A DNA stretch of 64,000 nt from Mustelus asterias (lineage: Eukaryota), in NCBI RefSeq assembly GCF_964213995.1, contig NC_135809.1, positions 32,426,001 to 32,490,000 on the forward strand, read 5' to 3'. Shown here piece by piece: positions 1,071 to 64,000 of this stretch (its first letter is position 1; the number at the start of each line of letters is the position of its first letter). A program made the position numbers and the translations under genes. The notes under the pieces were generated by a model. The model had not been told where the DNA came from, ran no database searches, and saw nothing but the letters and a program-made list of their open reading frames with translations.

Positions 1071-1401
1071 TGTGGTGAACCATCGTTGGTTCCCACTAGA
1101 TAGTACTGAGCCAGGGTCTGGCCAGTACTACAAGTATGTATATATGTTGCTGTTGGGGTTAGGGATGGGTTGTTCTACTTGTTGCTGTTGGGGTTAGGGT
1201 TGGGCTGTTACACCTTGTATTATAGTTATTATGGTACATCCCAGTCGGGCTCCGCCTCCTGGGAGAGGTATAAAGGTCACTGCTCTGTCTGGGACCCCTC
1301 AGTTTGGGATCGTGTACTATACTTAGTAGCATTGTTGTAACAGTAAATAAAAGCCTTTATTTCCTGAGCATCTCAAGCCTCGTGTGTGATAACGCGCATC
1401 A
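1071..1401 (+). mobile_element. Solo LTR (331 bp) of a Gypsy family related to the element at 42345-47032
   Basis: TG...CA ends; 5-bp TSD GTAAG (1066-1070 / 1402-1406); TATAAA about 1269 and AATAAA about 1346; clearly similar to the LTRs at 42345 and 46735. Confidence 0.93.
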
Positions 1402-2997
1402 GTAAGATATTACAGGGTGCTCCCAGAACTGTGAAAAGGGCAGGAATGCATAGTAAGCTGCATGTGATGAAATGTCCAGATTGTAAGGGATGTTGTGAAT
1501 CTTTTTGAGAAAAAGAATTGTCTTTATTAAAAAAAAATAATCAAATCACAGTCCCAATGAGATTTATATCCATAAAGGTTTTGCTATTTTTAGCAAACAA
1601 AATAATATTGTGTCTGCCCCCAATCAGTCCAGGTCATAAATTGTCCCTTTTGCTTCATTTTAATTCCTCTAATTCCTTTTAATAATTCGAAAACTCTAAA
1701 GCTCTGAGCTGTCTTCCACTCAATCCTTCATTGCTTCTTTTAGGTCAAAGACATTAAGATTTGTTGATATTCCTGCCAATTAGAACCCATATTATTTGTA
1801 TCCCAAGTGCAGTCTGAGACATTTATTTAAATTCCCAAATGTTTGTTTGATTTATGTGCATGTCCTCCTGCACATGCTGTGCCAAGTTGCACATTTATCC
1901 ACTGATGTTTACTGGATGGTCTCTCTTCGCGCAATTATAATCAAGATTCGGTTCCCAGTTCCCAGCTCTGGATTGCAAAGTAGCTTCTTTCAGGTTTCAG
2001 AACAGCTGCAAGTGTGCAGTGTGTTCTCTCACGGTCGCTATTTGTAATACTTGTCAGGTGCCAGCACAAGATAGACGAAAGCTACAGGAAGTCCCTAGGG
2101 TCCGGCACTCAGCTCAAATTGTCTTGCTCACCTGCACCGATAAAATAGGATTGCCTTAGCCACGAGACCCTTTTGTCAGCTCCATTCCACCTCCACGGCC
2201 ACACAACTCCACACGGCAAGGGCTGCCCTGCTGTCAGAAGCGTGGATGAAAACCAACAATTCTGATTGTGTGAACCAGGGCTGATGGTAATAATACAGCA
2301 GCAATTAGACTGGAAAATTTGCCATCAGTAATATTAGCAACAATGTCAAACGGCCTGTCTAAATATTATCTTCAATTTTGAATGACTCTCAGTTTAATTT
2401 GGCCACGTTAGCTATTTTTTATGGTGATATTCATTTCCTCAAACTGATTTCCTCTGTTGGGACTGCAAATAAAAGAACAGTGCTAATATCCTAAATCCAT
2501 CCCAGAGGGTACCTGATTAGCAAGGCAAGTGATTTGTTATGGCTCAGATCTGCTCAGAGGATGGAAAGTTCACTGCCTCTGTGACCTTTTGTACAAAATC
2601 GTAGTAACCATGCAGAAAATTCATGGGATATGATATCATTTGTCATAATCATTATTTCCCAGTGGCTCAACACAACAAACCCCGAAGCATATCTCTATCA
2701 TCTCCACACCTCGAGCAATTGATGCCCGGGAATTCTCACCTTTATGGTCCAGCATGCATGTCATTGCTATCTGGTTGTAGCATTAGTATTATATTTTACA
2801 TTTCATCGTGCAGTGTGCTGTTCTCATAGCATCATCACTTTTGTAATAGCTTCAAGAAGAATATTTAAGTAGGAAATATTTAGATTAAGCATTTGCTTTC
2901 TGGAGGGCAAATAACCCAGCCAGCTTTTTAAAAAATGTGTTTGTGGGACGTGAGCATGCGAGGCCAGCATTTAATGTCCATCCCTAATTGCCCTTGA

Positions 2998-6375: not shown

Positions 6376-6387
6376 AAATTCCAGTAT

Positions 6388-6782
6388 TTTTTATTCATTC
6401 GTGGGACATGAGCTGGCTAGTATTTATTGATGTGGAGATGCCGGCGTTGGACTGGGGTAAACACTGATTTATTGCCCATCCCTAGTTGCCCTTGTTCAGA
6501 GGGCAGTTGAGAGTCAATCACATTGCTGTGGATCTGGAGTCACATGTAGGCCAGACCAGGTAAGGATGACAGATTTCCTTCCTCAAAGGGCATTAGTGAA
6601 CGAGATGGGTTTTTCCGAAAATCATTTCATGGTCATCAGTAGATTCTTAATTCTGGGTATTTTTTACTGAATTCAAATTCCACCATCTGCCATGGTGGGA
6701 TTCGAATCCAGGTCCTCAGAACATTAGCTGAGTTTCTGGATTAATAGTCCAGCGATAATAACATTGGGCCATCGCCTCCCCA
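6388..6782 (-). mobile_element. SacSINE1-like Deu-domain SINE carrying a 37-nt Penelope tail insertion (6430-6466)
   Basis: tRNA-like head with GATTCGAATCCC; Deu-like core CCTTACCTGGTCTGGCCTACATGTGACTCCAG; tail shared with the LINE end at 11980-12225. Confidence 0.75.
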
Positions 6783-9645: not shown

Positions 9646-11710
9646 GAACATAGAACATAGAAAGCCACAGCACAAACAGGCCCTTCGGCCCACAAGTTGC
9701 GCCGATCACATCCCCACCTCTAGGCCTATCTATAGCCCTCAATCCCATTAAATCCCATGTACTCATCCAGAAGTCTCTTAAAAGACCCCAACGAGTTTGC
9801 CTCCACCACCACCGACGTCAGCCGATTCCACTCACCCACCACCCTCTGAGTGAAAAACTTACCCCTGACATCTCCTCTGTACCTACCCCCCAGCACCTTA
9901 AACCTGTGTCCTCTCGTAGCAACCATTTCAGCCCTTGGAAATAGCCTCTGAGAGTCTACCCTATCCAGACCTCTCAACATCTTGTAAACCTCTATCAGGT
10001 CACCTCTCATCCTTCGCTCTCCAGGGAGAAGAGACCAAGCTCCCTCAACCTATCCTCATAAGGCATGCCCCCCAATCCAGGCAACATCCTTGTAAATTTC
10101 CTCTGCACCCTTTCAATGGCTTCAACATCTTTCCTGTAATGAGGTGACCAGAACTGCGCGCAGTACTCCAAGTGGGGTCTAACCAGGGTCCTATAAAGCT
10201 GCAGCATTATCTCCCAACTCCTAAACTCAATCCCTCGATTAATGAAGGCCAGTACGCCGTACGCCTTCTTGACCGCATCCTCCACCTGCGAGGCCGATTT
10301 AAGAGTCCTATGGACCCGGACCCCAAGGTCCTTCTGATCCTCTACACTGCTAAGAATGGTACCCTTCATATTATACTGCTGCTTCATCCCATTGGATCTG
10401 CCAAAATGGATCACCACACACTTATCCGGGTTGAAGTCCATCTGCCACTTCTCCACCCAGTCTTGCATTCTATCTATGTCTCGCTGCAACTTCTGACATC
10501 CCTCCAAACTATCCACAACACCACCTACCTTGGTGTCGTCAGCAAACTTACCAACCCATCCCTCCACTTCCTCATCCAGGTCATTTATGAAAATGACAAA
10601 CAGCAAGGGTCCCAGAACAGATCCCTGGGGCACTCCACTGGTCACTGACCTCCATGCAGAGAAAGACCCCTCCACAGCCACTCTCTGCCTTCTGCAGGCA
10701 AGCCAGTTCTGGATCCACAAGGCAACAGCCCCTTGGATCCCATGCCCTCTCACTTTCTCAAGAAGTCTTGCATGGGGGACCTTATCGAACGCCTTGCTGA
10801 AGTCCATATAGACCACATCCACCGCTCTTCCTTCGTCAATGTGTTTGGTCACATTTTCAAAGAACTCAACCAGGCTCGTAAGGCACGACCTGCCCTTGAC
10901 AAAGCCGTGCTGACTACTTTTGATCATACTAAACTTCTCTAGATGATCATAAATCCTGTCTCTCAGGTTCCTCTCCATCAACTTACCAACCACTGAGGTT
11001 AGACTCACCGGTCGGTAATTTCCCGGGCTGTCCCTGTTCCCTTTCTTGAATATAGGGACCACATCTGCAATCCTCCAATCCTCCGGAACCTCTCCCGTCT
11101 CCATCGACGATGCAAAGATCATCACCAAAGGCTCCGCAATCTCCTCCCTCGCCTCCCACAGTAACCTGGGGTACATCCCATCCGGTCCCGGCGACTTACC
11201 AACCTTGATGCCATTCAATAGTTCCAACACATCCTCTTTCTTTATGTCCACATGCTCGATCCTTTCTGTCCACCGCAAACCAGCAGTACAACCACCCAGA
11301 TCCCTTTCCACCGTGAATACCGAGGTAAAGTATTCATTAAGCAGCTCCGCCATTTCTAACGGTTCCGCACAAACTTTTCCCCCTTCACCTTTTAAGGGTC
11401 CTATGCCTTCACATCTCATCCTTTTACTCTTGACATATTTGTAGAAAGCCTTGGGATTCTCCTTAATCTTACCCGCCAAGGCCTTCTCATGACCCCTTCT
11501 CGCTCTCCTAATTTCCTTCTTAAGCTCCTTCCTACATCCCGTATACTCCTCTAAATCCTTAACACCTCCTAGCTCTCTGAACCTTCTGTACGCCTCTCTT
11601 TTCTTATTCACCAGGTTCATCACAACCTTCGTGCACCACGGTTCCCGTACCCTACCAACACCCCCCTGTCTCATCGGAACGTTGTCATGCAGAGCTCCAG
11701 ACAAACATTG
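9646..11710 (-). mobile_element. Young 5'-truncated CR1/HER1 LINE
   Basis: (CTATGTT)n tail; continuous RT reading frame with a single frameshift near 10010-10020. Confidence 0.95.
9726..11709 (-). pseudogene. CR1 ORF2 reverse transcriptase, N-terminally truncated, one frameshift
   Basis: ORFs 10007-11716 and 9726-10010: KSPGPDG, NYRPVSLTS, DFSKAFDKVPH, GVPQGSVLGP, FADDTK. Confidence 0.93.
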
Positions 11711-11979
11711 GGGCATCCTGGTTGAGGAGTCCAGAACATTCTGACAGGTAACGGTTAAATGTTTTCACAACTCCAAATGTCATTATTAGGTGCTGTATTA
11801 TAAGTTAGATGTGTTTTTACTGCATTGATTGATCAAAGGGTTCTGTTAAGTTAGCCAATACATTGATCAGCACTGTGCACGTGATGAGATGCATTAGAGT
11901 TCTTTTATCAGTGGAAAAAGTGTGATTATGCATTCAAAACTGATGGGGACATTGCTGGGAAACTCTGGTGTCATGGTTT

Positions 11980-16937: not shown

Positions 16938-19757
16938 CTAAACCAATTTCTTTTCGTCCATGAACCTATCTACGGATCTCTTAAACGCCCCCAAACAAGG
17001 CGCATTTACTACTGATGCTGGCAGGGCATTCCAATCCCTCACCACCCTCTGGGTAAAGAACCTACCCCTGACATCGGTTCTATAACTACCCCCCCTCAAT
17101 TTAAAGCCATGCCCCCTCGTGCTGGATTTCTCCATCAGAGGAAAAAGGCTATCACTATCCACCCTATCTAAACCTCTAATCATCTTATATGTTTCAATAA
17201 GATCCCCTCTTAGCCGCCGCCTTTCCAGCGAAAACAATCCCAAATCCCTCAGCCTCTCCTCATAGGATCTCCCCTCCATACCAGGCAACATCCTGGTAAA
17301 CCTCCTCTGCACCCTCTCCAAAGCCTCCACATCCTTCCTGTAATGTGGGGACCAGAACTGCACACAGTACTCCAAGTGCGGCCGCACCAGAGTTGTGTAC
17401 AGTTGCAACATAACGCTACGACTCCTAAATTCAATCCCCCTACCAATAAACGCCAAGACACCATATGCCTTCTTAACAACCTTATCTACTTGATTCCCAA
17501 CTTTCAGGGATCTATGCACACATACACCTAGATCCCTCTGCTCCTCCACACTATTCAAAGTCCTCCCGTTAGCCCTATACTCAACACATCTGTTATTCCT
17601 ACCAAAGTGAATTACCTCACACTTCTCCGCATTAAACTCCATCCGCCACCTCTCGGCCCAACTTTGCAACCTGTCTAAGTCTTCCTGCAAACTACGACAC
17701 CCTTCCTCACTGTCTACCACACCACCGACTTTGGTGTCATCAGCAAATTTGCTAATCCACCCAACTATACCCTCATCCAGATCATTAATAAATATTACAA
17801 ACAGCAGTGGCCCCAAAACAGATCCCTGAGGTACACCACTTGTAACCGCACTCCATGATGAATATTTACTATCAACCACCACCCTCTGTTTCCTATCCGC
17901 TAGCCAATTCCTGATCCAATTTCCTAGATCACCCCCAATCCCATACATCTGCATTTTCTGCAGAAGCCTACCATGGTGAACCTTATCAAACGCCTTACTA
18001 AAATCCATATATACCACGTCCACTGCCTTGCCCCCATCCACCTCCTTGGTCACTTTCTCAAAAAACTCAATAAGGTTAGTAAGGCACGACCTACCTGCCA
18101 CAAAACCATGCTGACTATCACCTATCAATTCATTACTCTCCAAATAACTATAAATCCTATCCCTTATAATTTTTTCCAACATCTTGCCGACAACAGAAGT
18201 GAGACTCACCGGTCTATAATTCCCGGGGAAGTCTCTGTTCCCCTTCTTAAACAATGGGACAACATTCGCTAACCTCCAATCTTCTGGTACTATACCAGAG
18301 GCCAACGACGACCTGAAGATCAGAGCCAGAGGCTCTGCAATCACTTCTCTTGCCTCCCAGAGAATCCTTGGATAAATCCCATCCGGACCAGGGGATTTAT
18401 CTATTTTCAGACCCTCCAGAATATCCTGCACATCCTCCTTATCAACTGTAATACTGTCTATTCTACTCCCTTGCAACCCAGTGTCCTCCTCAGCTATATT
18501 CATGTCCCCTTGCGTGAACACCGAAGAGAAATATTGGTTCAATGCTTCACCAATCTCCTCCGGTTCCACACATAACTTCCCTCTGCCATCTATAACTGGC
18601 CCTAAACTTGCCCTAACCAACCTTCTGTTCTTGACATACCTATAGAACGCCTTAGGATTCTCTTTAACCCTATCCGCCAAAGTCTTCTCATGTCCTCTTT
18701 TAGCCCTTCTAAGCTCGCTCTTCAACTCCCTCTTAGCCAATCTAAAGCTTTCTAGTGCACTACCCGAGTGCTCACGTCTCATCCGAACATAAGCCTCCTT
18801 TTTCTTTTTAACCAACAAAGAAACTTTTTTGGTGCACCACGGTTCCCTAGCCCTACCAATTCCTCCTTGCCTGACAGGGACATACCTATCACAGACTCGC
18901 AGTAGCTGCTCCTTGAAAAAACTCCACATGTCGGACGTTCCCAGTCCCTGTAATCTCCTAGTCCAACCTATGTTTCCTAATTCTCTCCTAATAGCCTCAT
19001 AATTACCCTTCCCCCAGCTAAAACCACTGGCCCGAGGTTCATGCCTATCCCTTTCCATCACTAAGGTGAACGTAACCGAATTGTGGTCACTATCACCAAA
19101 ATGCACACCAACTTCCAAGTCTAGCACCTGGTCTGGCTCATTTCCCAGCACCAGATCCAATGTAGCCTCACCTCTAGTTGGCCTGTCTACATACTGAGTC
19201 AAAAAACCTTCCTGCACGCTTTGAACAAAAACTGACCCCTCTAACGAGCTAGAGCTATAACAATTCCAGTCAATATTAGTCAAGTTAAAATCCCCCATAA
19301 CAATTGCCCTATTACTTTCACTCCTAAGCAGGATTGACTCCGCAATCCTTTCCTCAACCTCTCTAGAACTTTTAGGAGGTCTATAAAAGACTCCCAACAG
19401 GGTGACCTCTCCTCTCCTATTTCTAATCTCCGCCCATACTACCTCAACAGATAAGTCCTCATCAAACCTCCTCTCTGACACTGTGATACAATCTCTGACC
19501 AATAATGCTACCCCTCCCCCTCTTCTACCTCCTTCCCTACTTCGACTAAAACATTTGAACCCCGGGACCTGCAGCATCCATTCCTGCCCCTGCTCTATCC
19601 ATGTCTCTGAAATAGCCACAACATCGAAGTCCCAGGTACTGATCCACGCTGCAAGTTCACCCACTTTATTGCGAATACTCCTGGCATTGAAGTATACACA
19701 TTTCAAACCCTGCTCCACCCCACCTCTGCAATGCCGTGCATTGCAGTCCCCATCCAT
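16938..19757 (-). CDS. CR1 ORF2: apurinic-like endonuclease + reverse transcriptase (939 aa, intact)
   Basis: APE motifs YFNARS, ISETW, GDFN, SDHN; RT motifs KSPGPDG, DFSKAFD, GVPQGSVLGP, FADDTK; no internal stops. Confidence 0.97.
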   Translation of the reverse strand: MDGDCNARHCRGGVEQGLKCVYFNARSIRNKVGELAAWISTWDFDVVAISETWIEQGQEWMLQVPGFKCFSRSREGGRRGGGVALLVRDCITVSERRFDEDLSVEVVWAEIRNRRGEVTLLGVFYRPPKSSREVEERIAESILLRSESNRAIVMGDFNLTNIDWNCYSSSSLEGSVFVQSVQEGFLTQYVDRPTRGEATLDLVLGNEPDQVLDLEVGVHFGDSDHNSVTFTLVMERDRHEPRASGFSWGKGNYEAIRRELGNIGWTRRLQGLGTSDMWSFFKEQLLRVCDRYVPVRQGGIGRAREPWCTKKVSLLVKKKKEAYVRMRREHSGSALESFRLAKRELKSELRRAKRGHEKTLADRVKENPKAFYRYVKNRRLVRASLGPVIDGRGKLCVEPEEIGEALNQYFSSVFTQGDMNIAEEDTGLQGSRIDSITVDKEDVQDILEGLKIDKSPGPDGIYPRILWEAREVIAEPLALIFRSSLASGIVPEDWRLANVVPLFKKGNRDFPGNYRPVSLTSVVGKMLEKIIRDRIYSYLESNELIGDSQHGFVAGRSCLTNLIEFFEKVTKEVDGGKAVDVVYMDFSKAFDKVHHGRLLQKMQMYGIGGDLGNWIRNWLADRKQRVVVDSKYSSWSAVTSGVPQGSVLGPLLFVIFINDLDEGIVGWISKFADDTKVGGVVDSEEGCRSLQEDLDRLQSWAERWRMEFNAEKCEVIHFGRNNRCVEYRANGRTLNSVEEQRDLGVCVHRSLKVGNQVDKVVKKAYGVLAFIGRGIEFRSRSVMLQLYTTLVRPHLEYCVQFWSPHYRKDVEALERVQRRFTRMLPGMEGRSYEERLRDLGLFSLERRRLRGDLIETYKMIRGLDRVDSDSLFPLMEKSSTRGHGFKLRGGSYRTDVRGRFFTQRVVRDWNALPASVVNAPCLGAFKRSVDRFMDEKKLV

Positions 19758-19807
19758 GCATCCCTCACTTTCAGCCCCACTACTCAGGATCCCTCCCCCC
19801 CCCCGAA

Positions 19808-20737
19808 TCAGTTTAAACCTCCTTGCATGGCCTTAGCAAATTTACCCCCCAGGATATTGGTCCCCTTCTGATTAAGGTGTAGACCATCCTTCTCATAGAG
19901 GTCACACCTTCCCCAGTACGAGCCCCAATTGCTTAAGTACCTGAACCCCTCCCTCCTGCACCATCCCCTCAGCCATGAATTCAAACCTTCCCTCTCCCTA
20001 TTCCTCTCTAAACTATCCCGTGGTACAGGCAAGAGTCCAGAGATAACCACTCTGTCAGTCTTGGCCTTTAGTTTCCACCCCAACTCCATAAATCCCTGCC
20101 TAATATCCCCTTCCCCTATCCTCCCTATGTCGTGTGTCCCCACATGTACAATAACTTGTGGTTTATCTCCCTCCCCCCTAAGAGTCCTGAATACCCTGTC
20201 AGACACATCCCGGACCCCAGCCCCTGGTAGGCAACACACCAACCCTGAGTCCCTACCTTTAGTTCCGACCCTCCTATCTGTCCCCTTAATTGTGGAGTCC
20301 CCAATCACAAGGCCCAGTCTTTTACAGCCCCTAACCACCTGAGCTTTCTCACTCGGCTCACCCCCAGAGATCTGCTCTCTATGCTCAGTTGATTCCTCCT
20401 CAACTGTAGCCTCCAGCACCGAAAACCTATTATGGAGGGGAACCGCCCCAGGGGATTGTCTTCCCGATTGCTTCTTACCCCTCCTCCTGGCATTGACCCA
20501 AGCCTCATTTCTAGGAGTTACTATTTCTCTATAACTCCTATCAACTTCCACCTCCGCCTCCCGAATTATGCGGAGTTCCTCTACCTCCCCCTCCAGCTCC
20601 TTTACACGCTCCTCCAGAAGCTGCAATCTAATGCACTTCTTACAACTAAAATCTCCTGAAACACTACTGGATTTCCTCACCACATACATCCCACAGGAGA
20701 TGCAGCATACTGCCTGAACTGCCATCCCTGAAGCCAT
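19808..20737 (-). CDS. CR1 ORF1: zinc finger/coiled coil + SGNH esterase (309 aa from ATG at 20737)
   Basis: CISC...CKKC followed by heptad LQLLEERVKELEGEVEEL; SGNH blocks VIGDS, PGAG, HVGTHD, DGLHLN; the upstream part of the called ORF lies in UTR repeats. Confidence 0.93.
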   Translation of the reverse strand: MASGMAVQAVCCISCGMYVVRKSSSVSGDFSCKKCIRLQLLEERVKELEGEVEELRIIREAEVEVDRSYREIVTPRNEAWVNARRRGKKQSGRQSPGAVPLHNRFSVLEATVEEESTEHREQISGGEPSEKAQVVRGCKRLGLVIGDSTIKGTDRRVGTKGRDSGLVCCLPGAGVRDVSDRVFRTLRGEGDKPQVIVHVGTHDIGRIGEGDIRQGFMELGWKLKAKTDRVVISGLLPVPRDSLERNREREGLNSWLRGWCRREGFRYLSNWGSYWGRCDLYEKDGLHLNQKGTNILGGKFAKAMQGGLN

Positions 20738-20801
20738 TACCAGCAAGAAAAAAAGAAAACAAAAAAAAAAAACAAAAAAAAAAAAACTTCCCCACACTTC
20801 C

Positions 20802-21163
20802 CCAACTGTCACTCTCCACTGCAGCCCGAGCAGCACTCCCACACTGAGACACCAACTGTCACTCTCCACTGCAGCCCGAGCAGCACTCCCACACTGAGAC
20901 ACCAACTGTCACTCTCCACTGCAGCCCGAGCAGCACTCCCTCACTGAGACACCAACTGTCACTCTCCACTGCAGCCCGAGCAGCACTCCCACACTGAGAC
21001 ACCAACTGTCACTCTCCACTGCAGCCCGAGCAGCACTCCCTCACTGAGACACCAACTGTCACACTCTACTGCAGCCCGAGCAGCTCTCCCTCACTGAGAC
21101 ACCAACTGTCACTCTCCACTGCAGCCCGAGCAGCACTCCCTCACTGAGACACCAACTGTCACT
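20802..21163 (-). repeat. About 7.3 copies of a 50-bp tandem monomer forming the CR1 5' UTR
   Basis: GCAGCCCGAG recurs at 20821, 20871, 20921, 20971, 21021, 21071 and 21121. Confidence 0.97.
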
Positions 21164-31400: not shown

Positions 31401-31976
31401 CCTGAGTAATTGAGTAAAAGACAATGGCTTGAATCTTCCAAGCAGCAGCAATCATCATCAAATTCCCCTGAGTGAGGTGCAAAGGTGGGTAAGGTTGGAT
31501 GAGGTGAGCACGTAGATAAGATAAGGTGGTAGGTGGGAGAAGTGGCTGGTGGGAAAGCTGACAGGTAGATGTGGTGGTAGTTAGGTGGGGGTGGGGTGGG
31601 GTGGGGTGGGGGCCACGCGGTGGTCAGGTCAAGTCATGTGGGTAGCCAGATGGTTGGAGGGGTAGTTGGGCTGGAGGGGTGTCAAGGCAAAGGGAGAGTC
31701 AGCTGGTCGGGGGGGGGGGGGGAATTAACTCACCCCCTGGCTGTAACCAGCCAGCCACGCGCTGGAAATTGGCATGAGGCTGATTACCAGATTGAAATTC
31801 CAACTTCGATATGATTAGCAAGGCCAGAATTTTTTAAAATTCATTTGTGGGACATGGGTGTCGCTGGCTGGCCAGCATTTATTGATGTGGAGATGCCGGC
31901 GTTGGACTGGGGTAAACACAGTAAGAGGTTTAACAACACCAGGTTAAAGTCCAACAGGTTTATTTGGTAGCAAAAG

Positions 31977-32021
31977 CCACACAAGCTTTCGGAGCTCTAA
32001 GCCCCTTCTTCAGGTGAGTGG
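31977..32021 (-). ncRNA. Minimal type I hammerhead ribozyme in the Penelope pLTR
   Basis: CAC-CUGAAGA-A-GGGGC/UUAGA/GCUCC-GAAA-GC-UU-GUG. Confidence 0.8.
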
Positions 32022-32209
32022 GAATTCTGTTCACAAACAGAGCTTATAAAGACACAGACTCAATTTACATGAATAATGGTTGGAATGCGAATACTTACAA
32101 CTAATCAAGTCTTTAAGAAACAAAACAATGTGAGTGGAGAGAGCATCAAGACAGGCTAAAAAGATGTGTATTGTCTCCAGACAAGACAGCCAGTGAAACT
32201 CTGTGGGGG

Positions 32210-33067
32210 TTACAGATAGTGTGACATGAACCCAATATCCCGGTTGAGGCCGTCCTCGTGTGTGCGGAACTTGGCTATCAGTTTCTGTTCAGCGACTCTG
32301 CGCCGTCGTGTGTCGCGAAGGCCGCCTTGGAGAACGCTTACCCGAATATCAGAGGCCGAATGCCCGTGACCGCTGAAGTGCTCCCCAACAGGAAGAGAAC
32401 AGTCTTGCCTGGTGATTGTCGAGCGGTGTTCATTCATCCGTTGTCGCAGCGTCTGCATAGTTTCCCCAATGTACCATGCCTCGGGACATCCTTTCTTGCA
32501 GCGTATCAGGTAGACAACGTTGGCCGAGTTGCAAGAGTATGTACCGTGTACCTGGTGGATGGTGTTCTCACGTGAGATGATGGCATCTGTGTCGATGATC
32601 CGGCACGTCTTGCAGAGGTTGCTGTGGCAGGGTTGTGTGGCGTCATGGTCACTGTTCTCCTGAAGGCTGGGTAGTTTGCTGCGGACAATGGTCTGTTTGA
32701 GGTTGTGCGGTTGTTTGAAGGCAAGAAGTGGGGGTGTGGGGATGGCCTTGGCGAGATGTTCGTCTTCATCAATGACATGTTGAAGGCACCAGAGGAGATG
32801 CCGTAGCTTCTCCGCTCCGGGGAAGTACTGGACAACGAAGGGTACTCTGTCCACTGTGTCCCGTGTTTGTCTTCTGAGGAGGTCGGTGCGGTTTTTCGCT
32901 GTGGCGCGTTGGAACTGTTGATCAATGAGTCGAGCGCCATATCCTGTTCTTATGAGGGCATCTTTCAGCGTCTGGAGGTGTCTGTTGCGATCCTCCTCAT
33001 CCGAGCAGATCCTGTATATACGGAGGGCTTGTCCGTAGGGGATGGCTTCTTTAACGTGTTTAGGGTG
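32210..33067 (-). pseudogene. Penelope ORF C-terminal part (RT thumb/linker + GIY-YIG), inverted copy
   Basis: Near-identical to the C-terminus of 33067-34299. Confidence 0.9.
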
Positions 33068-34299
33068 TCTTCACCTTCAACAACCAGTTCTTCATCCAGA
33101 CACACGGAACAGCCATGGGGACCAAATTCGCACCTCAATATGCCAACATCTTCATGCACAGGTTCAAACAAGACTTCTTCACCGCACGGGACCTTCAACC
33201 GATGCTATACACTAGATACATCGATGACATTTTCTTCCTTTGGACTCATGGTGAACAATCACTGAAACAACTCTATGATGACATCAACAAGTTCCATCCC
33301 ACCATCAGACTCACCATAGACTACTCTCCGGAATCGGTTGCATTCTTGGACACACGCATCTCCATTAAGGACGGTCACCTCAGCACCTCACTGTACCGCA
33401 AGCCCACGGATAACCTCACGATGCTCCACTTCTCCAGCTTCCACCCTAAACACGTTAAAGAAGCCATCCCCTACGGACAAGCCCTCTGTATACACAGGAT
33501 CTGCTCGGATGAGGAGGATCGCAACAGACACCTCCAGACGCTGAAAGATGCCCTCATAAGAACAGGATATGGCGCTCGACTCATTGATCAACAGTTCCAA
33601 CGCGCCACAGCGAAAAACCGCACCGACCTCCTCAGAAGACAAACACGGGACACAGTGGACAGAGTACCCTTCGTTGTCCAGTACTTCCCCGGAGCGGAGA
33701 AGCTACGGCATCTCCTCTGGTGCCTTCAACATGTCATTGATGAAGACGAACATCTCGCCAAGGCCATCCCCACACCCCCACTTCTTGCCTTCAAACAACC
33801 GCACAACCTCAAACAGACCATTGTCCGCAGCAAACTACCCAGCCTTCAGGAGAACAGTGACCATGACACCACACAACCCTGCCACAGCAACCTCTGCAAG
33901 ACGTGCCGGATCATCGACACAGATGCCATCATCTCACGTGAGAACACCATCCACCAGGTACACGGTACATACTCTTGCAACTCGGCCAACGTTGTCTACC
34001 TGATACGCTGCAAGAAAGGATGTCCCGAGGCATGGTACATTGGGGAAGCTATGCAGACGCTGCGACAACGGATGAATGAACACCGCTCGACAATCACCAG
34101 GCAAGACTGTTCTCTTCCTGTTGGGGAGCACTTCAGCGGTCACGGGCATTCGGCCTCTGATATTCGGGTAAGCGTTCTCCAAGGCGGCCTTCGTGACAGA
34201 CGACGGCGCAGAGTCGCTGAACAGAAACTGATAGCCAAGTTCCGCACACACGAGGACGGCCTCAACCGGGATATTGGGTTCATGTCACACTATCTGTAA
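33067..34299 (+). CDS. Penelope-like RT + GIY-YIG endonuclease, 5'-truncated but open
   Basis: GTAMGTKFAPQYANIFM, RYIDDIF, linker PCHSNLCKTC (Neptune-type Cys motif), VVYLIRC...WYIGE, RMNEH, GLN. Confidence 0.92.
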   Translation, partial: VFTFNNQFFIQTHGTAMGTKFAPQYANIFMHRFKQDFFTARDLQPMLYTRYIDDIFFLWTHGEQSLKQLYDDINKFHPTIRLTIDYSPESVAFLDTRISIKDGHLSTSLYRKPTDNLTMLHFSSFHPKHVKEAIPYGQALCIHRICSDEEDRNRHLQTLKDALIRTGYGARLIDQQFQRATAKNRTDLLRRQTRDTVDRVPFVVQYFPGAEKLRHLLWCLQHVIDEDEHLAKAIPTPPLLAFKQPHNLKQTIVRSKLPSLQENSDHDTTQPCHSNLCKTCRIIDTDAIISRENTIHQVHGTYSCNSANVVYLIRCKKGCPEAWYIGEAMQTLRQRMNEHRSTITRQDCSLPVGEHFSGHGHSASDIRVSVLQGGLRDRRRRRVAEQKLIAKFRTHEDGLNRDIGFMSHYL

Positions 34300-34486
34300 C
34301 CCCCACAGAGTTTCACTGGCTGTCTTGTCTGGAGACAATACACATCTTTTTAGCCTGTCTTGATGCTCTCTCCACTCACATTGTTTTGTTTCTTAAAGAC
34401 TTGATTAGTTGTAAGTATTCGCATTCCAACCATTATTCATGTAAATTGAGTCTGTGTCTTTATAAGCTCTGTTTGTGAACAGAATT

Positions 34487-34532
34487 CCCACTCACCTGAA
34501 GAAGGGGCTTGCAGCTCCGAAAGCTTGTGTGG
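34487..34532 (+). ncRNA. Minimal type I hammerhead ribozyme in the Penelope pLTR
   Basis: CAC-CUGAAGA-A-GGGGC/UUGCA/GCUCC-GAAA-GC-UU-GUG. Confidence 0.8.
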
Positions 34533-36591
34533 CTTTTGCTACCAAATAAACCTGTTAAACTTTAACCTGGTGTTGTTAAATTTCTTACAGCATTTATTGC
34601 CCATCCCTAGTTGCCCTTTGTCCAGCAGAAAGTAAGAGTCAACCACATTGCTGTGGCTCTGGAGTCACATTGGGCCAGACCAGGTAAGGACAGCAGATTT
34701 CCTTCCTAAAGGACATTCGTGAACCAGATGGGTTTTTCCGACAATTGACAATGGTTTCATGGTCATCAGTAGATTCCTAATTTCAGATTTTTTTTATTGC
34801 CGTGGTGGGATTTGAACCCTGGTCCCCAGAACATTAGCTGAGTTTCTGGATTAACAGTCTAGCGATAAAACCACTAGGCCATCACCTCCCCTAAATGAAT
34901 GGTAGTCTCTAGGCTCGCTAGTGTCTCCCCCCACCCCCCACCCCCCCCCCCCCCGCCCCCGGGAGAGGTTCTCAGCAGCAGGGATTACAACTGGCCCCAT
35001 CAGTCAGTTGTGTAGTTATTCAGATGTTAAACTAAGTTGTAATCTATTATTTCTTGGGTAACTATCCAGGTAAGTACATTGGAACTGCCCAAAACCTCCG
35101 ATTCTAGCGCAGGGTCAGTAACATTAGCTCAGCACAGGGAATCTTCCCATTAGTGGATGAAAATTCCTGGGCAATTCCCACCAAAGTCAGCCGATTAGAC
35201 ATTTCCACAGTGTCCCGACACACACATCTCAGATGATCCAGAGATGAGACGGTTTGGGTCAATATATTTATGAAGATGTGACGATGAGTGGAGAATTTTA
35301 GGCATGAGGAATGATTGGAAACCTTTGGGTTGTTGTCCTTGGGATAGAGGGAAGATTTAACTGAGGTTCATAAAATTCATAAAAGGGATGAAAAGAGGTT
35401 AAGTTCCCTGGGGAGGTGCTTCCTGCCTTCCCACTAACACCTCTGTAGACAGAGACAAACTGAAATTGCTTTGAGTTCTGGTGGAAGTTCCTTTTCCCAA
35501 AGGAAGCCAGGCAAGCAGACCTTGGTAACGTCACTAAGATTTGTGTATACCTGCAATGCTGTATCCTCACTGGTTGTTAAAAAATTACACTTCCAACGTA
35601 TCATACTTTGTACAGTCCTTCCTGAAGACATGTCTTTTAAGATAATTATTTTATCATTCTTAAAAACAGAATAGACAATTACATGTATTATTGTTTCAAA
35701 ACATTCATTTTAAGTCTACATATTGAGGCATACACACTGTCCTACATCTAGAAAGTTACATGTAAGGGGATCTTCTTGTGGATCATAAGCATGTGAATCC
35801 AAACCTATTTACATGCCCTATCAGAAATTTTGACATCATTTGCCATCCCATGTGCTCAAAACATTTAGTAACATCATTTGTCATAATTTGACATCAAAAG
35901 GTGTCATTTGGAACAAGATATCAAAAGTAATAATTTGTCCTCCCACCTCATACGCTCACTCATACCCTCCCTCTTTCCCCACAGCCTCCACTCACTCTCC
36001 CCTGCCCTATCCCTTCTCCACTCGACCTTCCACCTGGGTTTCTCCACCTTGCCTGGATGTGGCCTCACTCCCACAGCAACCCTGCTCTCTCCCGCAGCTG
36101 CAAACTCACGCTCTCCTCCGGCTATGTTCCCATGCTCTCCCCCCGGCCACATTTCAGCACTGTCCTCCGCTGTCCACGATCCTGCACTCAGCCCCAGTCA
36201 ATGGCAGTGACTCACACAGTGGAGGTAACACCATGAAGGCACAGTGCAAGAAGGCACTCTGCAGGTTGCTTATGAGCTACTGGGGGTCTGGCCTCTGCAC
36301 CACCTGATTGAAAGGCAAGTTAGAGGCAGGTGGCTTTAGTTCAAATATTGATAGTGTTGCAATCCCAGCTGATGTTAATACTGGGCAAGTTGGACCCCAA
36401 GGTGAAATCTGGCTTGATAGATCCTAACTTTTTTTAAAGAAGCTATGGAACAAATTTACTGAACTAATTCATATATATTGAGTCTACTGATGAACTTTTA
36501 ACACCAAGAATAAAATATTTATCAACAAGAAAAATGTTACAACATTACACCAGACAAGAATGTTGGATAGGTCTCAATACAACCAAAAGCA

Positions 36592-40799: not shown

Positions 40800-42267
40800 T
40801 GGGGCTATGATTTTCTGGCACATCATGCCTGGCGCAGATCACCTTAGAGTGGAGAGAGGCCAGAGAATTGCAGGTGAGGGGTTTCGTGTGTTCAGCGCCA
40901 GCGCAAAGCTCCGTTGTGATCGTCCCAACCCGGACATAATCTGGTCCCTGCCCAGTAAGGGCAGAAACCAGATTAATATAATTTGAATAAGTATTTAAAT
41001 ATGCTGAATCCCTTTGAGGCCGGATTCGTCCTGCTCCTGAGATCTTCCAGCACCCAATGGCAGCGGGAACCCGCAAGGATCACATTAATGGATGGCCACA
41101 CCAAGGAGGTTCGGAGGCCATTGAAACTTTTGGGTGGTCAGGAACATGGCTGAGCAATGCTCACCTGACAGTGCCAGCTGACACCCTCACAGTGCCAGCC
41201 TGGAAGTGCCAACAGGCCAGCTTGGCACAGCCAGGGTTTTGGGGTAGTGCCAAGGGGTGGATCCTGAGGGCAGGTGGGGCCTGAGGGGGGGATGTGGCAT
41301 GAAGGGTGTTCACAAAGGGGAGCCAATTTCAATATTCATGACATTGTTAGTATGCCATTAATAGTCCCGGACACTATCATCCAGGTTCACTTGCACTTAC
41401 CTGTTCGCCAGTCAAGGTCTTCACCGGCAAAGATCACGTATGGTCCCCACCAATGGGGAACAGACGTAATGGCCTTTCCTGTGGAAACAGAGGCCAATGA
41501 AGCCCCCCAGATGGTCGAGGGCAGGACCCAGGAGTGTTCCTTGGGCAGTGCCAGCCTGGCACTGCCAGCTTGGCACCCTGGCAGTGCCTACCGGACACTG
41601 ACCAGAGAGTGTGGCCTGATGGGATAGGGCCTGATTGGGCGGGGACTGAGGGGGCAGAGCCATGATGGGGGAGGCAAGGGGGAGCTCTGTAGTGGGGAGA
41701 GAAGGAGGGAACACTGTGGATGGGGGGGTTGATCAGCTGGGGCAGCGTTCAGGGTGTGTGGGGGGGCAATGTCCAGGCCAGCGATTGGGGAGGTGGGGGG
41801 TTGATTGGCCAAGGCGACGATGGGTTTGGGAGTTCATCAGCTGGAGCAGTGATCCGGGGCGAAGTCTAGGGTGGGCAATTGGTTTTGGGGGGGCGGGGGT
41901 GGGGGGGGCGGGGGTGGGGGGGGCGGGGTGATGTCGGCTGGGGGAATGGGAGCCCAGCAAAGGGAGCAGGGCAGAGCCTAATCTCCTGTCACTCCCTCCA
42001 TCCCCACCCATGGACATTGGACCCCGCCGCCGTCCCGATATCCATGGGTGGGGGTGGAGGGAGTGACAGGAGATTAGGCTCCATCCCGCTCCCTACTGGT
42101 GAAAATCACATCCTGGCAGTATTTGCTTACTAAATGTCATAAGATTGCTTATTTTAACTCATCCAAAAACGAGTCTGAAACTCTCCCGTTTTCTCGCTCG
42201 TTCGGCACTTCGAATTTCTTTTGGTGAGGTCACCACCTCTGCCAGTTTTTTGTTGAGATTTAGCCCA
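40800..42267. repeat. GC-rich DNA-transposon-like repeat with an internal hairpin
   Basis: Motifs shared with the 38284 and 29347 families; G-tracts; boundaries approximate. Confidence 0.4.
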
Positions 42268-42344
42268 ATCTCCCATCAGAAAATTGAGTACCATTTCCTC
42301 TTAACCTTTCAGGTTATTATTCACTTAGAACCAGTTTACACCAG

Positions 42345-42642
42345 TGATGCGCGATATAACACACGAGAGGCTGGATGTACTCGGGAAATAAAGGCTTTTA
42401 TTGCCAACAATAACGGAGCTACTATATACAGTATACGATCCCAGACTAAAGGGTCACCAGGCAGAGCAGTGACCTTTATACCTCTCCCAGGAGGCGGAGC
42501 CGACTGGGGTGTACCATAAGAACTATATTAACAGGTAGAACAGCCCAACCCTAACCCCAACAGTAACATATCTACAGACTCATAGTGCTGGCCAGACCAT
42601 GGCTCAGCACTACCTGGTGGGAACCAACAATGGTTCACCACA
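42345..42642 (-). repeat. 3' LTR
   Basis: TG...CA ends; PPT adjacent at 42643-42656. Confidence 0.96.
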
Positions 42643-42705
42643 TTCACCCCTCCTTTGAAAACAAAGGCCGGCGGGGTACAAAACACAGAACAATTGTTCA
42701 TCTGT

Positions 42706-45700
42706 CTATAAGTTCAAACGGTCTGGGGGACCGCACCGTCGCTGTGACCTCCTCAACACCGGCAATGACACCGGTTCAGGCAATCGCGGTGACGTTCTCT
42801 CCAAGGCGGTGTCCAGCGACTCCTCCAGTGCCTCACGGGCCGGTAGACCCCGAGATGGTGACAATCCGCTGAACTCGGGCACGCCTTGAAGTGGCGACCA
42901 TCTCCTGGACTCAGGCAAGCTGTACATGGGAGTAAGAGGGTTAAGTGGTGGTCCCGATACTGCCCGCGCCGTGTCAGGAGGGGAAATAATGGTTGGGGGG
43001 TACCTAACAGGAGGTGTGGGAGCGACAGGGGTTTCCAAGCCCCCTGCTGGCGCCAGATCTCGAATCGAGACCGTGTCCTCTCGCCCGTCAGGATATGCCA
43101 CGTAGGCATACTGAGGGTTGGCATGGAGGAGATGGACCTGTTCAACCAAAGGGTCGGACTTGCGGGTCCTAACATGCCGCCGCAGGAGGACAGGTCCTGA
43201 GTACGTCAACCAAGACGGTAATGAGGTCCCAGAGGAAGACTTCCTAGGGAATGATAACATTCTCTCATGAGGAGTAGCGTTGGTTGCCGTACACAGGAGT
43301 GAGCGTATGGAGTGGAGCGCATCAGGGAGTACCTCTTGCCAACGGGAGACTGGAAGACCTTTAGACCTCAACGCCAGTAAGACAGCCTTCCAGACTGTAG
43401 CATTCTCTCGTTCGACCTGTCCGTTACCCCTTGGGTTGTAGCTCATGGTTCTACTAGAGGCAATCCCATATGAGAGCAGGTATTGCTTCAAGTCATCGCT
43501 CATGAACGACGAGCCCCTATCGCTGTGGATATAACAGGGGTAACCGAACAGGGTGAAAAGATCACGAAATGCCTTGATAACCGTGGCAGCGGTCATATCA
43601 GAACAGGGAATGACAAAAGGGAATCGTGAGTACTCATCAACCACATTGAGGAAGTACACGTTCCGATCTGTCGAGGGAAGGGGGCCCTTAAAGTCCACAC
43701 TCAGTCTTTCGAAGGGACGAGTGGCCTTAACGAGGTGTGCCCTGTCAGGTCGGTAGAAGTGCGGTTTGCATTCCGCGCATACCCGGCAGCTTCTGGTTAT
43801 GGACCTGACATCCTCCACCGAGTAGGGTAGATTCCGGGCTTTTATGAAGTGGTAGAGCCGAGTGACCCCCGGATGGCAGAGGTCATTGTGGAGAGCCTGC
43901 AATCGATTCTCCTGCATACTAGCGCATGTTCCACGCGACAGGGCATCCGAGGGCTCGTTGAGCTTCCCTGGACGATACATGATATCATAATTGTAGGTGG
44001 AGAGTTCGATTCTCCACCTCAAAATCTTATCATTCTTGATCTTACCCCGTAACGTGTTGTTGAATATGAACGCCACGGACCGCTGGTCCATGAGCAGAGT
44101 GAACCGTTTTCCCGCCAAGTAATGGCGCCAATGCCGGACGGGCTCCACAATGGCCTGGACCTCCTTTTCCACCGCCGAATGTCGAATTTCAGGGCCTTGG
44201 AGGGTGCGAGAGAAAAAGGCGACGGGCCTGCCCGCCTGGTTAAGTGTGGCGGCCAGGGCGAAATCAGATGCATCACTCTCCACCTGGAAGGGGATGGACT
44301 CATCGATAGCGTGTATCGTGGCTTTCGCGATGTCGGCTTTTATTCTCGCAAAGGCTAAGCGAGCCTCTGTTGCTAGGGGAAAAGAGGTAGATTTGATGAG
44401 CGGACGGGCTTTGTCCGCGTAATTGGGAACCCACTGTGCGTAGTATGAGAAGAAGCCTAAACATCTTCTCAGCGCTTTGACGCTAGTGGGCAGGGGAAGT
44501 TCGAGGAGAGGACGCATACGGTCTGGATCAGGGCCAAGGACCCCGTTTTCCACCACGTATCCAAGGATAGCTAGGCGGCGCGTGCGAAATACACACTTCT
44601 CCCTGTTGTAGGTCAGATTCAGGCGAGATGCAGTGTGTAAGAATCTAAGAAGGTTGGCATCATGGTCCTGCTGGTCATGGCTGCAGATGGTGACGTTATC
44701 CAGGTACGGGAAGGTAGCCCGCAGTCCGTTCTGGTCCACCATTCAGTCCATAGCACGCTGGAAGACCGAGACCCCTTTCGTGACACCAAAAGGAACCCTT
44801 AAAAAATGGTACAGGCGACCATCCGCCTCAAAGGCCGTGTATTGTCGGTCCTCTGGGCGAACGGGGAGCTGGTGGTAAGCAGCCATGGTACTGCGCAATC
44901 TGATTGACCATGTCAGATATGCGCGGGAGGGGATACGCATCCAGCTGCGTGTATCTGTTAATGGTCTGACTATAGTCTATGACCATCCGGGGTTTGTTCC
45001 CATTCTTAACCACCACGACTTGCGCTCTCCAAGGACTAGCGCTAGGTTGGATGATCCCTTCCTTGAGGAGCCGCTGAACTTCAGATCGAATGAAGATCCG
45101 ATCCTCAGCGCTGTAACGCCTGCTCTTTGTTGCGATGGGCTTGCAGCCTGGCACGAGATTCTGGAATAGGGAGGGTGTTGTAATCCTAAGCGTTGAGAGA
45201 CTACATGTGGAGCGCGTTGGGCAATTTAGAGGCTGCGGGTCTCCCACTGAAAGCGGAGGGAGTGGCCCATCGTACTGCAGGGTTACACTCTTCAAGTGGA
45301 CCATAAAATCTAGTCCTAGGAGTATTGGCGCACAAAGGTGCGGTAACACAAGGAGCCTGAAGTTCTCGTAAACCGTGCCCTGCACCGTCAGATTGACCAT
45401 GCAACTCCCTAGCACGGTGACAGACCGGGACCTTGACGCCATCAAAATTGTCTACTTGACAGTCCGAATCTGGAGACCACACCGCTTCACGGTGTCTGGG
45501 TGAATGAAGCTCTCCGTGCTCCCGCTGTCAAACAAACAATAAATCGGGCGTTTGTTTACCTGTATGTCCATCATGGACTTGTCGAGTCTGTGAGGCTTGG
45601 CCTGGTCCAGGATGATCGACGCCACCGTTGGTTCGTGGGTGCAACTGCAGGCAGCTGAGATGGTTGATGACAACCCCTGCTGGTCATTCGCGATCGGTGC

Positions 45701-46678
45701 CGACCAAAATGGCTGCCCCCATAGGTCGCACGTGGACGATGGCGCCAAAACCTGCGGCCCCTGCAGGTCGCACGTGTCTTGCGACTCCGTCGTTCAGAAT
45801 GGTGACGTCCTGGAATCGCACATGGTAGAAGACCTTGAAGATGCAGAAGACAAGGAGGCCGGCTCCGGGGAGTCACACGCCGCACTGCTGTTCTTGGATT
45901 GAAGTTTGGACCGGCATACCTTGGAATAGTGCCCCTTCTTGCCGCAGGCGGAGCACAACACCACTTTAGCTGGACATCGCTGCCGAGGGTGTTTCACCCC
46001 CCCACAGAAGTAACACCGCGGGCCACCTGGAGCTGCTGTCGTCGTCAGGTCCGAGGCTGGGAACGCAATCGCGCAGTTTTTCGGTCCCGCTGAATGAAGT
46101 GGAGTCTGTGACTGCCCCTGCCACGCTGTCTCCACGTGGTCGTCGGGGTACATCGCCAGACTTTTGGAGGCAGTTTCTAGAGCATCAGCTAACTCTATGG
46201 TTTTAGTGAGATCGAGGTTACCTTGCTCCAACAGCCGAAGGCGGATGTACGACGAGCCGATTCCCGCCACGAACGCATCTCGAGCTAGGTCGTTCATGTA
46301 CTGGTCTGCCGACACTGACTTGCAGTTGCAGGCTCTGGCTAGCTGCTGAAGCTTGCACGCGTACTGTTCCGTCGTTTCGCCGGGCTGCCGCCGTCGAGTG
46401 GCTAGAAGGTATCGAGCATGGATCTCATTCGGCGGTTTGTTGTATCGCTTCTTGAGGAGCTCGAGGGCCCCTTTGTAGTCGGTGGCCCCACGGATCGCTC
46501 GGTATACAGCGTCGCTTACCCTCGCGTGGAGGACCCGGAGTCTGTCGGCGTCGTCGGTGACCGCTGTGGAGGCGTTGAGGTAATCCTGGAAACACTTCAA
46601 CCAGTGGTCGAAAGTGTTCGATGCTCCCGCCGCACGTGGGTCCAACGTAAGCCGTTCGGGTTTAAGCATTTGCTCCAT
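42706..46678 (-). pseudogene. gag-pol polyprotein; originally one ORF, now three in-frame stops and one frameshifting deletion in RT
   Basis: Double CCHC CYFC..H..CPA..CSAC..GH..C; protease LFDSGS; RT YLDN; RNase H ESDASD; integrase HPG..CRVC, VDFKGP, HSDRG, ERENA. In-frame stops at 45794, 45452 and 44743; deletion near 44885 removes the first RT catalytic Asp region. Confidence 0.92.
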
Positions 46679-46719
46679 GTTTTCTTTGTCGTTTTGTTTT
46701 CAAAAAAAAAGAATTTACT

Positions 46720-46733
46720 TGTTGGCAATAAAA
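46720..46733 (-). promoter_or_regulatory. Non-tRNA primer-binding site, complementary to the element's own LTR
   Basis: TTTTATTGCCAACA, 1 nt downstream of the 5' LTR, is the reverse complement of LTR TGTTGGCAATAAAA (46786-46799); no TGG start. Confidence 0.7.
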
Positions 46734-46734
46734 T

Positions 46735-47032
46735 TGATGCGCGATATAACACACGAGAGGCTGGATGTACTCGGGAAATAAAGGCTTTTATTGCCAACAG
46801 TAACAGAGCTACCATATACAGTATACGATCCCAGACTAAAGGGTCACCAGGCAGAGCTGTGACCTTTATACCTCTCCCAGGAGGCGGAGCCGACTGGGGT
46901 GTACCATAAGGACTATATTAACAGGTAGAACAGCCCAACCCTAACCCCAACAGTAACATATCTACAGACTCATAGTACTGGCAAGACCATGGCTCAGCAC
47001 TACCTGGTGGGAACCAACAATGGTTCACCACA
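46735..47032 (-). repeat. 5' LTR
   Basis: TG...CA ends; TATAAA and AATAAA on the minus strand. Confidence 0.96.
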
Positions 47033-56024: not shown

Positions 56025-56250
56025 TTATTCATTCATGGGACATGGGTATCATTGGCTGGCCAGCATTTATTGTCCATCCCTGAGGGCAGTTGACAGTCAA
56101 CCACATTGCTGTGGCTCTGGAGTCACATGTAGGCCAGACCAGGTAAGAATAGCAGATTTCCTTCCCTAAAGTACATTCGTGAACCAGATGGTTTTTCCGA
56201 TAATGGTTTAATGGTCATCAGGAGATTCTTAATTCCAGATATTTTTTATT
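56025..56250 (-). mobile_element. SacSINE1-like Deu-SINE, 5'-truncated, with an empty Penelope target site
   Basis: Homologous to 6388-6782; reads GCCAGCATTTATTGTCCATCCC uninterrupted. Confidence 0.78.
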
Positions 56251-63282: not shown

Positions 63283-63676
63283 AATGTGGAGATGCCGGCG
63301 TTGGACTGGGGTAAACACAGTAAGAAGTTTAACAACACCAGGTTAAAGTCCAACAGGTTTATTTGGTAGCAAAAGCCACACAAGCTTTCGAGGCTCTAAG
63401 CCCCTTCTTCAGGTGAGTGGGAATTCTGTTCACAAACAGAACTTATAAAGACACAGACTCAATTTACATGAATAATGGTTGGAATGCGAATACTTACAAC
63501 TAATCCAGTCTTTAAGAAACAAAACAATGGGAGTGGAGAGAGCATCAAGACAGGCTAAAAAGATGTGTATTGTCTCCAGACAAGACAGCCAGTGAAACTC
63601 TGCAGGTCCACGCAACTGTGGGAGTTACAAATAGTGTGACATAAACCCAATATCCCGGTTGAGGCCGTCCTTGTGT
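63283..63676 (-). mobile_element. 5'-truncated Penelope copy (3' pLTR + tail), same family as 31885
   Basis: Matches 31885-32265; TSD GTGGC(T/C)GCTCTA (63271-63282 / 63677-63688). Confidence 0.92.
63376..63420 (-). ncRNA. Minimal type I hammerhead ribozyme
   Basis: CAC-CUGAAGA-A-GGGGC/UUAGA/GCCUC-GAAA-GC-UU-GUG; stem II pairing retained despite sequence change. Confidence 0.8.
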
Positions 63677-64000
63677 GTGGCCGCTCTATCCAGGGAAGAA
63701 TACATTGTTTAAGTGACCTGTGATATTAACCACCTCATGCTGGAGGCAGATTCCATTCATCTGTACACAATCTCAGTGGGTGTAATTTGAAGGTTCGTCA
63801 GTGAATCTCACATTCCCTGCTGATCTATAATTCTGGAATGATTCTCTTATTCTCCAATGATCCCCAGGGTACAACATGTGTTCAGCTGTGCAGAGTTTGT
63901 AGAGGGCTGCACCCTCTGACACAGACTATCCACTATTGTCCCTGTCTCCTGTTCTCGTTTCCATTGAATCACCAGACGATAAGCCAGCTATCTGCTTTAA

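Follow-up and report, generated by a model that had tools for sequence, protein, structure and literature searches.

A general symmetric target probably accounts for recurrent insertion of a Penelope-like element at one nucleotide of a shared SINE/LINE tail

What brings two copies of a mobile element to the same nucleotide of a repeat, one as an insertion of 2,703 nt and the other as a stub of 37 nt? The question arises in a window of 64,000 nt (the whole stretch of Mustelus asterias DNA that was analysed), in which a solo tail of a Penelope-like element (PLE) lies within the 3' tail of a SINE (Table 1). The original prediction described a 37-nt tail between 8-bp duplications in a repeat tail. 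The layout is confirmed, with a 35-mer and TG between two copies of ATTTATTG; of the 37 nt, the first 35 and the last G match the element, and the penultimate base differs (AG in the element, TG in the stub). The 35-mer occurs exactly three times in the window (6430, 31885 and 63284) and never in 100 shuffles. It follows ATTTATTG in both repeat copies, so that the stub and the large element at 31885 do share their host nucleotide as proposed, and the left arm of the large element exceeds its right arm by the predicted 36–37 nt. At the stub the right duplication copy is without 4 nt of the usual 12-nt duplication.

Table 1 Features of the PLE insertions and their host repeats, in window coordinates.
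Feature	Position	Strand	Remark
Host SINE copy of the stub	6387..6782	-	A-box-like and B-box-like words in head, body, 3' tail common to a LINE
CTG, left half-site of the symmetric target	6413..6415	+	In the rebuilt empty allele, 16 nt separate it from the right half-site
Left 8-nt target duplication copy, ATTTATTG	6422..6429	+	Usual duplication here 12 nt, 6418-6429
35-nt PLE tail	6430..6464	-	Exact match to the terminus of 36,600 genomic copies
TG junction bases	6465..6466	.	Likely slip-back filler (AC/TGGGG re-copied) or first two bases of the second arm
Right target duplication copy, ATTTATTG	6467..6474	+	Followed by CCCATCCC
CAT, right half-site, imperfect (best form CAG)	6477..6479	+	
Left 12-nt duplication of the large element, CAGCATTTATTG	31873..31884	+	CTG half-site at 31868-31870
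PLE insertion of 2,703 nt, two inverted 5'-truncated arms	31885..34587	.	Tail on left arm only
Right 12-nt duplication of the large element	34588..34599	+	CCCAT comes next, then the remainder of the second host SINE, to ~34891
Empty site in a third SINE copy	56065..56072	+	CTG-N16-CAT intact
Third PLE copy, single arm	63284..63679	-	12-nt duplication with one mismatch (63271-63282, 63677-63688) in a TG-N17-CA site

The large element carries the expected 12-bp duplication, CAGCATTTATTG, at both ends and lies in another copy of the stub's host repeat. Its inverted arms of 1,155 bp are 98.7% identical. An open reading frame fragment at 33064-34299 (+) encodes the end of a reverse transcriptase (RT), a CX4CxxC linker and a GIY-YIG domain; the Pfam matches are weak and both lie under the curated cut-off (RVT_1, E 8.9e-6; GIY-YIG, E 0.0019), and the GIY-YIG motif VVY..CKKGC..YIG and the linker PCHSNLCKTC can be read directly. 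Words of the form CTGAAGA...GAAA near 34497-34523 look hammerhead-like by eye. The features of an endonuclease-bearing (EN+) PLE are thus found here: RT and C-terminal GIY-YIG in the ORF fragment, an inverted truncated partner, a one-sided tail and a target duplication. Judged by its residues, the CX4CxxC linker appears to be the mark of the Neptune/Nematis group. A Poseidon label was considered and dropped, since Penelope/Poseidon elements are defined by having no linker motif and the linker is present here.

How does a high-copy element come to leave only its tail? The stub is real and very probably an extremely 5'-truncated copy, an ordinary truncation at a symmetric target. Truncation was probed at three positions only, nt 22, 35 and 37 of the element, where searches with similar four-position filters of slightly different pass rates returned 102, 80 and 105 filtered departures, respectively. 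Among the departures at nt 22, 8 of 30 loci were solo stubs with a duplication of at least 8 nt. At nt 35 the number was 12 of 67 rows, a set comprising all matches apart from the window copy and 12 that show a known internal deletion; at nt 37 it was 2 of 30, one of these doubtful. Scaled up, this gives about 27, about 13 (with the window copy) and 3–7. The commonest class at each position was a short tail arm with an inverted arm (10/30, 36/67 and 17/30). Further in, over nt 41–150, 0.26–0.9% of tail arms still end per nt (174 copies). With no peak of stubs at the tail boundary and arm ends that go on, the stub forms the lower extreme of a continuous range of lengths. Solo stubs are also found within the target motif described below, and two nt-35 stubs lie in a CR1-like hotspot. 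Separately, the match to the window copy breaks off at nt 346 in 11 of the 174 tail arms, and the third window copy has a 16-nt insertion about there; these ends probably mark a deletion in the window reference copy and not a stop site.

Short fillers copied from nearby sequence, such as TGGGGT or CAGTTTAC, are frequent at the junctions of stubs and resemble those of microhomology-mediated end joining. After nt 35, TG is the commonest filler: it follows in 24 of 60 non-deletion matches, often as TGGGG (by eye), with about 5 expected. A full 37-nt tail with an A-to-T point change is therefore judged unlikely; among long copies this change was seen at 6 of 30 loci (~0.3% of copies). A shorter duplication as a mark of tail-only inserts was likewise set aside: the means, 11.2 nt in 22 stubs (one doubtful 8-mer excluded) and 12.4 nt in 78 other copies, differ at p 0.0002, but little weight is placed on this because the length filters differed (at least 8 versus 10–15).

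Could the insertion at 6430 have begun as a two-armed fold-back that later lost its hairpin by deletion, so that only the tail, TG contributed by the right arm and a duplication cut short remained? In a fold-back, the sequence left unpaired corresponds exactly to the tail; CTTACTG is a frequent end of right arms (7/78), AC is common to both junction ends, and the loss of 4 nt from the duplication fits a deletion; two other loci read as tail, TTACTG and duplication (L250) and as tail and TGTGT (L104). However, the pile-up at 35–37 nt that such a collapse predicts is absent and 22-nt stubs are commoner, the TG filler is common where no collapse happened, and long, near-perfect fold-backs persist, as in this window. 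This makes a collapse improbable. It is less probable still, in our estimate, that the tail is a discrete first product, made when reverse transcription runs from a distal to a proximal start site, pauses for a template jump and aborts, as the original prediction suggested. The 37-nt insert does equal the tail in length, and the accessible part of PMC11167929 places the tail between two start sites. The tail end is followed by ATTTATTG within 6 nt in three matches: the 6430 locus, another tail-only insert, on a different contig but at the identical host nucleotide (L182), which speaks for such a product, and a short insert in another target (L183). Against it, the filtered matches at the three positions are alike, solo stubs drop from nt 22 to nt 37 (those at nt 22 are about twice as frequent as at nt 35, with nt 37 rarer still), and arm ends continue well beyond the tail. 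We regard such a product as very unlikely, and ordinary truncation remains the preferred reading.

Why, then, the same nucleotide twice? The 35-mer has 36,600 exact copies in the 3.68-Gb genome, 118 of them after ATTTATTG and 131 at the same site but oppositely oriented, together 0.7% of copies; these genomic counts are of exact matches, and a few duplicated segments are among them (2 of the 4 close pairs examined). Among 30 fetched copies after ATTTATTG, 28 lie within the host tail and 19 have the exact 15-nt flank, and 12 of 20 fetched opposite-orientation insertions carry the reverse complement of the same 12-nt duplication. The exact 23-mer of the empty host site is present in 30,024 copies. 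With a numerator of ~75 of the 118 copies, scaled from the 19 of 30 loci, occupancy in one orientation is ~0.0025 per site, 500 times the genome mean; requiring an exact right flank as well (present in 9 of 14 resolved loci by a count made by eye) lowers this to ~320 times. The enrichment that a genome-wide search for the tail was expected to reveal is thus there. A target-specific retrotransposon would place most of its copies in one target and in fixed orientation; here it is 0.7%, in a ratio of 118 to 131.

Within 26 kb, the expectation for a pair among the 118 matches is 0.1 genome-wide, and higher when shorter or diverged copies are added. The four close pairs of hotspot matches that were checked comprise two duplicated segments, one independent pair and one unclear pair (96% identity over 1.35 kb, inserts of 164 and 185 nt). 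One duplicated segment with its PLE insertion is direct and 100% identical over 2 kb, perhaps an assembly artefact (G000:C22 58,446,010-58,478,719); the other is inverted and ~98% identical over 4 kb (G000:C20 8,424,374-8,445,736).

What most of the sampled sites have in common is a target, (C)TG-N16-CA(G), favoured genome-wide and centred on the 12–13-nt duplication. It was derived from 148 copies (the first 30 matches of the 35-mer, 60 stretches at the next listed matches and a further 30 loci), of which 78 with a 10–15-nt duplication and a PLE-like far end were kept and 70 dropped; the 'random' part of this sample is the first 9 Mb of one contig, plus the 30 separately fetched loci. TG-N16-CA falls within 1.5 nt of the duplication centre in 49 of 78 copies, counted without realignment, against a background mean of 1.6 and a maximum of 6 in 1000 draws. 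The TG..CA spacing peaks at 16 (50 pairs), with 15 pairs at 17 and 10 pairs at 15, and 52 of 78 duplications are 12 or 13 nt long. After alignment, full CTG..CAG sites (26/77) are enriched 687-fold and one-sided matches (22/77) 121-fold, a ratio of 5.7; the remaining 29 of 77 are without TG-N16-CA and fit neither class. Leaving out putative CR1 hotspot sites changes these values to 568 and 131, a ratio of 4.3. The third window copy, said earlier to use an unrelated target, does differ in target sequence, but its motif, TG-N17-CA with a 12-nt duplication, is of the same kind; it starts at 63284.

The host tail reads CTG-GC-[12 nt]-CC-CAT, a one-sided match to the motif. Since CTG-N16-CAT recurs tens of thousands of times in the shared SINE/LINE tail, two hits in one window need no SINE-specific homing. 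As a control served a full CTG..CAG site in an ORF that we take to be of CR1 type and that has 68% protein identity to the LINE ORF of the window. With 99 occupied and 7,013 empty copies its occupancy is 0.0141, 5.7 times that of the host site and equal to the ratio of the motif classes (687 vs 121); this control is one site in one orientation, picked because it had been seen occupied (twice in the sample). The 12 control inserts fetched vary in length, and the CR1-like site is also entered from the other strand (L037, L038, L134, L250, L302). A weight matrix from 77 sites predicts a 25- to 70-fold enrichment at the host site, versus the 320- to 500-fold observed. Both test sites lie 3–4 times above their class means, for which loose alignment, a subset with 17-nt spacing and flank decay are candidates. 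Reuse of the host site is, with good probability, explained by this general symmetric target, with occupancy following the quality of the match.

Two other explanations for the target were tried and rejected. TCATG as a motif turned out to belong to the element itself, which runs on with these bases into its start codon (at least 4 nt match in 38 of 93 copies), and microhomology at the cut as a cause of hotspots is not borne out by any excess of TG at the canonical cut positions. Some further sites came to light in passing. Two of the first 30 sampled loci (L052, L053) share a position in another repeat, a further hotspot with a loose motif match. PLE copies also lie within or beside other PLE copies (L095, L106, L257, L050), two of which (L095, L106) have a similar flank ending in GAAAGATCTTA, possibly one more hotspot.

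Does the endonuclease nevertheless recognise the SINE/LINE tail specifically, as a safe-haven target? The per-site enrichment of 320- to 500-fold, its under-prediction by the weight matrix and the 28 of 30 copies after ATTTATTG that sit in this tail would all agree with such a preference. Yet the tail holds only 0.7% of copies, in both orientations and under a general motif, and the control site is 5.7 times hotter. Further motif matches in the same SINE are used as well (L173, L175, L252, L301), as are those in CR1-like copies, again in both orientations. The occupancy and motif tests largely refute a recognition of the tail as such, which had been the original prediction, and the chance that it holds is slight.

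The host repeat itself has a head with A-box-like and B-box-like words, seen by eye and tRNA-like, in which neither ARAGORN nor Rfam found a tRNA. It is a putative SacSINE1/Deu-SINE copy, with a presumed resemblance to the Deu domain. Its tail is shared: 13 of 30 empty sites run into a second family, whose sense strand leads to a C-terminal peptide that we take to be LINE-like. This bears on the three empty sites proposed for the window. The one at 56065 has intact ATTTATTG followed by TCCATCCC; the other two read ATCTATTG (12024) and ATTTAATG (2969) and continue like the LINE-type host, not the SINE. By description, the host is similar to the SacSINE1 (Deu-SINE)/L2-2_CM pair, a SINE and LINE of very high copy number in cartilaginous fishes, with a tRNA-like head, a body and a LINE-shared 3' tail (accessible sections of PMC5499810).

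Are these insertions independent events? Rebuilding was possible for 37 of 52 occupied copies and gave 21 SINE-type, 9 LINE-type and 7 ambiguous hosts. Inserts at the host site range from 37 to 2,703 nt, in both orientations and in several subfamily variants. The window's two hosts are 79.6% identical and have unrelated flanks. In a tree of 35 SINE-type hosts, the phylogenetic check that had been proposed, the occupied label changes 11 times versus 11.2 in shuffles; the tree is nearly unresolved, with no strongly supported branch, and no bootstrap tree groups the occupied hosts together. Independent insertion at one nucleotide of a high-copy tail is thus borne out by mixed host types, orientations and lengths. 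A single chimeric master or a segmental duplication behind both window copies has next to no probability: duplicated segments do occur in two of the four close pairs elsewhere, but the divergent hosts and unrelated flanks refute it for this pair, and the mixture of hosts, orientations, insert lengths and variants, together with the label changes in the nearly unresolved tree, speaks against it in general, so that one chimeric master is ruled out.

How might such a target be used? The distal end of the tail is situated 1 nt ahead of the ATG with which the element's long ORF begins; in L256 this ORF has at least 495 codons. Since 38 of 93 copies carry at least 4 nt of continuation beyond the tail (L256, L288 and L134 among these loci), the distal start point, located at the start codon, is loose. 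The proximal point is marked by the right arms, which stop at or close to CTTA(CTG). A dimer making two nicks with 3' overhangs would suit a target that is symmetric, has a fixed stagger and is used equally in both orientations, and we infer that the GIY-YIG endonuclease likely cuts both strands ~12 nt apart as a dimer. The top-strand 3' end would then prime reverse transcription at the distal start point, just before the start codon. At 6430 synthesis of the first cDNA would have stopped after 35 nt, and the loose cDNA end would have been joined to the other cut end with 4 nt lost and a 2-nt filler added. In most insertions the second 3' end would likely prime a second cDNA 36–37 nt further in, giving an inverted arm without tail, as at 31885. 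That the dimeric, restriction-like endonuclease of this family reads CTG-N16-CAG and leaves fixed 12-nt 3' overhangs, both of which prime cDNA, seems to us somewhat more plausible than its opposite. If true, one rule would cover why the duplication is constant, how the fold-backs are laid out, why only one arm has a tail, where the stubs come from and how hotspots in unrelated repeats rank. Four loci (L224, L270, L295, L334) are tail-to-tail hairpins, in which both arms have a tail and run into the ORF start, unlike the usual one-sided tail.

Several of these traits are familiar from described PLEs. In the accessible sections of PMC8557442, Neptune and Nematis EN+ PLEs share a C-terminal GIY-YIG with two cysteines inside the motif, an inverted 5'-truncated partner, a one-sided tail of 30–40 nt and a target duplication; their linker is given as CX2-5CxxC (here CX4CxxC). 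They differ in their preferred targets, named there as (TA)n and other microsatellites instead of a spaced palindrome, and in duplications that vary with a variable cut distance, while ours have a mode at 12–13 nt. PAc, a Poseidon protein from Anolis carolinensis, cleaves and extends both strands in vitro and is predicted to be a dimer (PMC11167929, accessible part). Its tail is the stretch between two reverse-transcription start sites, as proposed here. In contrast to the present family, PAc preferred ATT on its one test substrate (here (C)TG-N16-CA(G)), its first start site lies 111–118 nt inside the ORF (here the distal start is at the start codon), and Poseidon has no linker motif (here CX4CxxC). 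The same part of that paper makes no mention of tail-only inserts for PAc. Penelope of Adineta vaga (PMC3846280, accessible sections) is alike in its inverted pLTRs, an optional 31-bp tail on one arm, duplications of 8–10 bp, nesting in other retroelements and microhomology junctions, and unlike in its low copy number; these sections give no target motif.

Among non-LTR elements, target-specific ones such as Utopia (PMC4640811) and R2 also insert repeatedly at one nucleotide of a multicopy sequence. As a rule they occupy hardly any sequence other than their target and keep to a single orientation. The PLE family studied here puts 99.3% of its copies elsewhere and uses both orientations. The target rule also warns against taking recurrent nesting in a high-copy repeat as evidence for repeat-specific targeting.

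Layout, tail and truncation are already known, and the spaced-palindrome target, as far as sequences can tell, would be the new part. In the openly accessible papers that were searched, we found none describing such a target for a PLE; the accessible parts of PMC12910113, PMC4209133 and bioRxiv 10.64898/2026.07.22.740005 hold nothing on a PLE target motif. This analysis also adds an occupancy test at two sites, insertion counts for both orientations and the finding that tail length shows no peak. Given the target rule, the stub and the shared SINE site are ordinary, and it is the rule that is of use. PMC8557442, PMC11167929 and PMC3846280, in their accessible sections, do not settle how PLEs cleave the second strand or why they form fold-backs. 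The spaced palindrome and fixed stagger provide a defined substrate for the dimer model, and tens of thousands of young copies allow statistics.

Other elements in the window and in the sampled loci deserve mention. The minus strand at 16938-20908 holds a LINE with two long open frames, one of 963 aa (endonuclease and RT) and one of 366 aa upstream, and a second, truncated relative lies at 10007-11764 (-). At 42100-46900 (-) there is an LTR-retrotransposon-like element with gag-, protease-, RT- and integrase-like ORF pieces (labels by eye), whose terminal sequence is repeated near 42400 and 46800. Finally, at ~1264-1452 (-) of a locus near G000:C5 14,900,200 (L026), the host tail is joined to the 5' end of a U2 snRNA at a distance of a few bases from a PLE insertion. 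The match to Rfam U2 has an E of 6e-8 and by eye comprises ~38 near-identical nt followed by other sequence, which resembles the junction of a U2-targeting retrotransposon.
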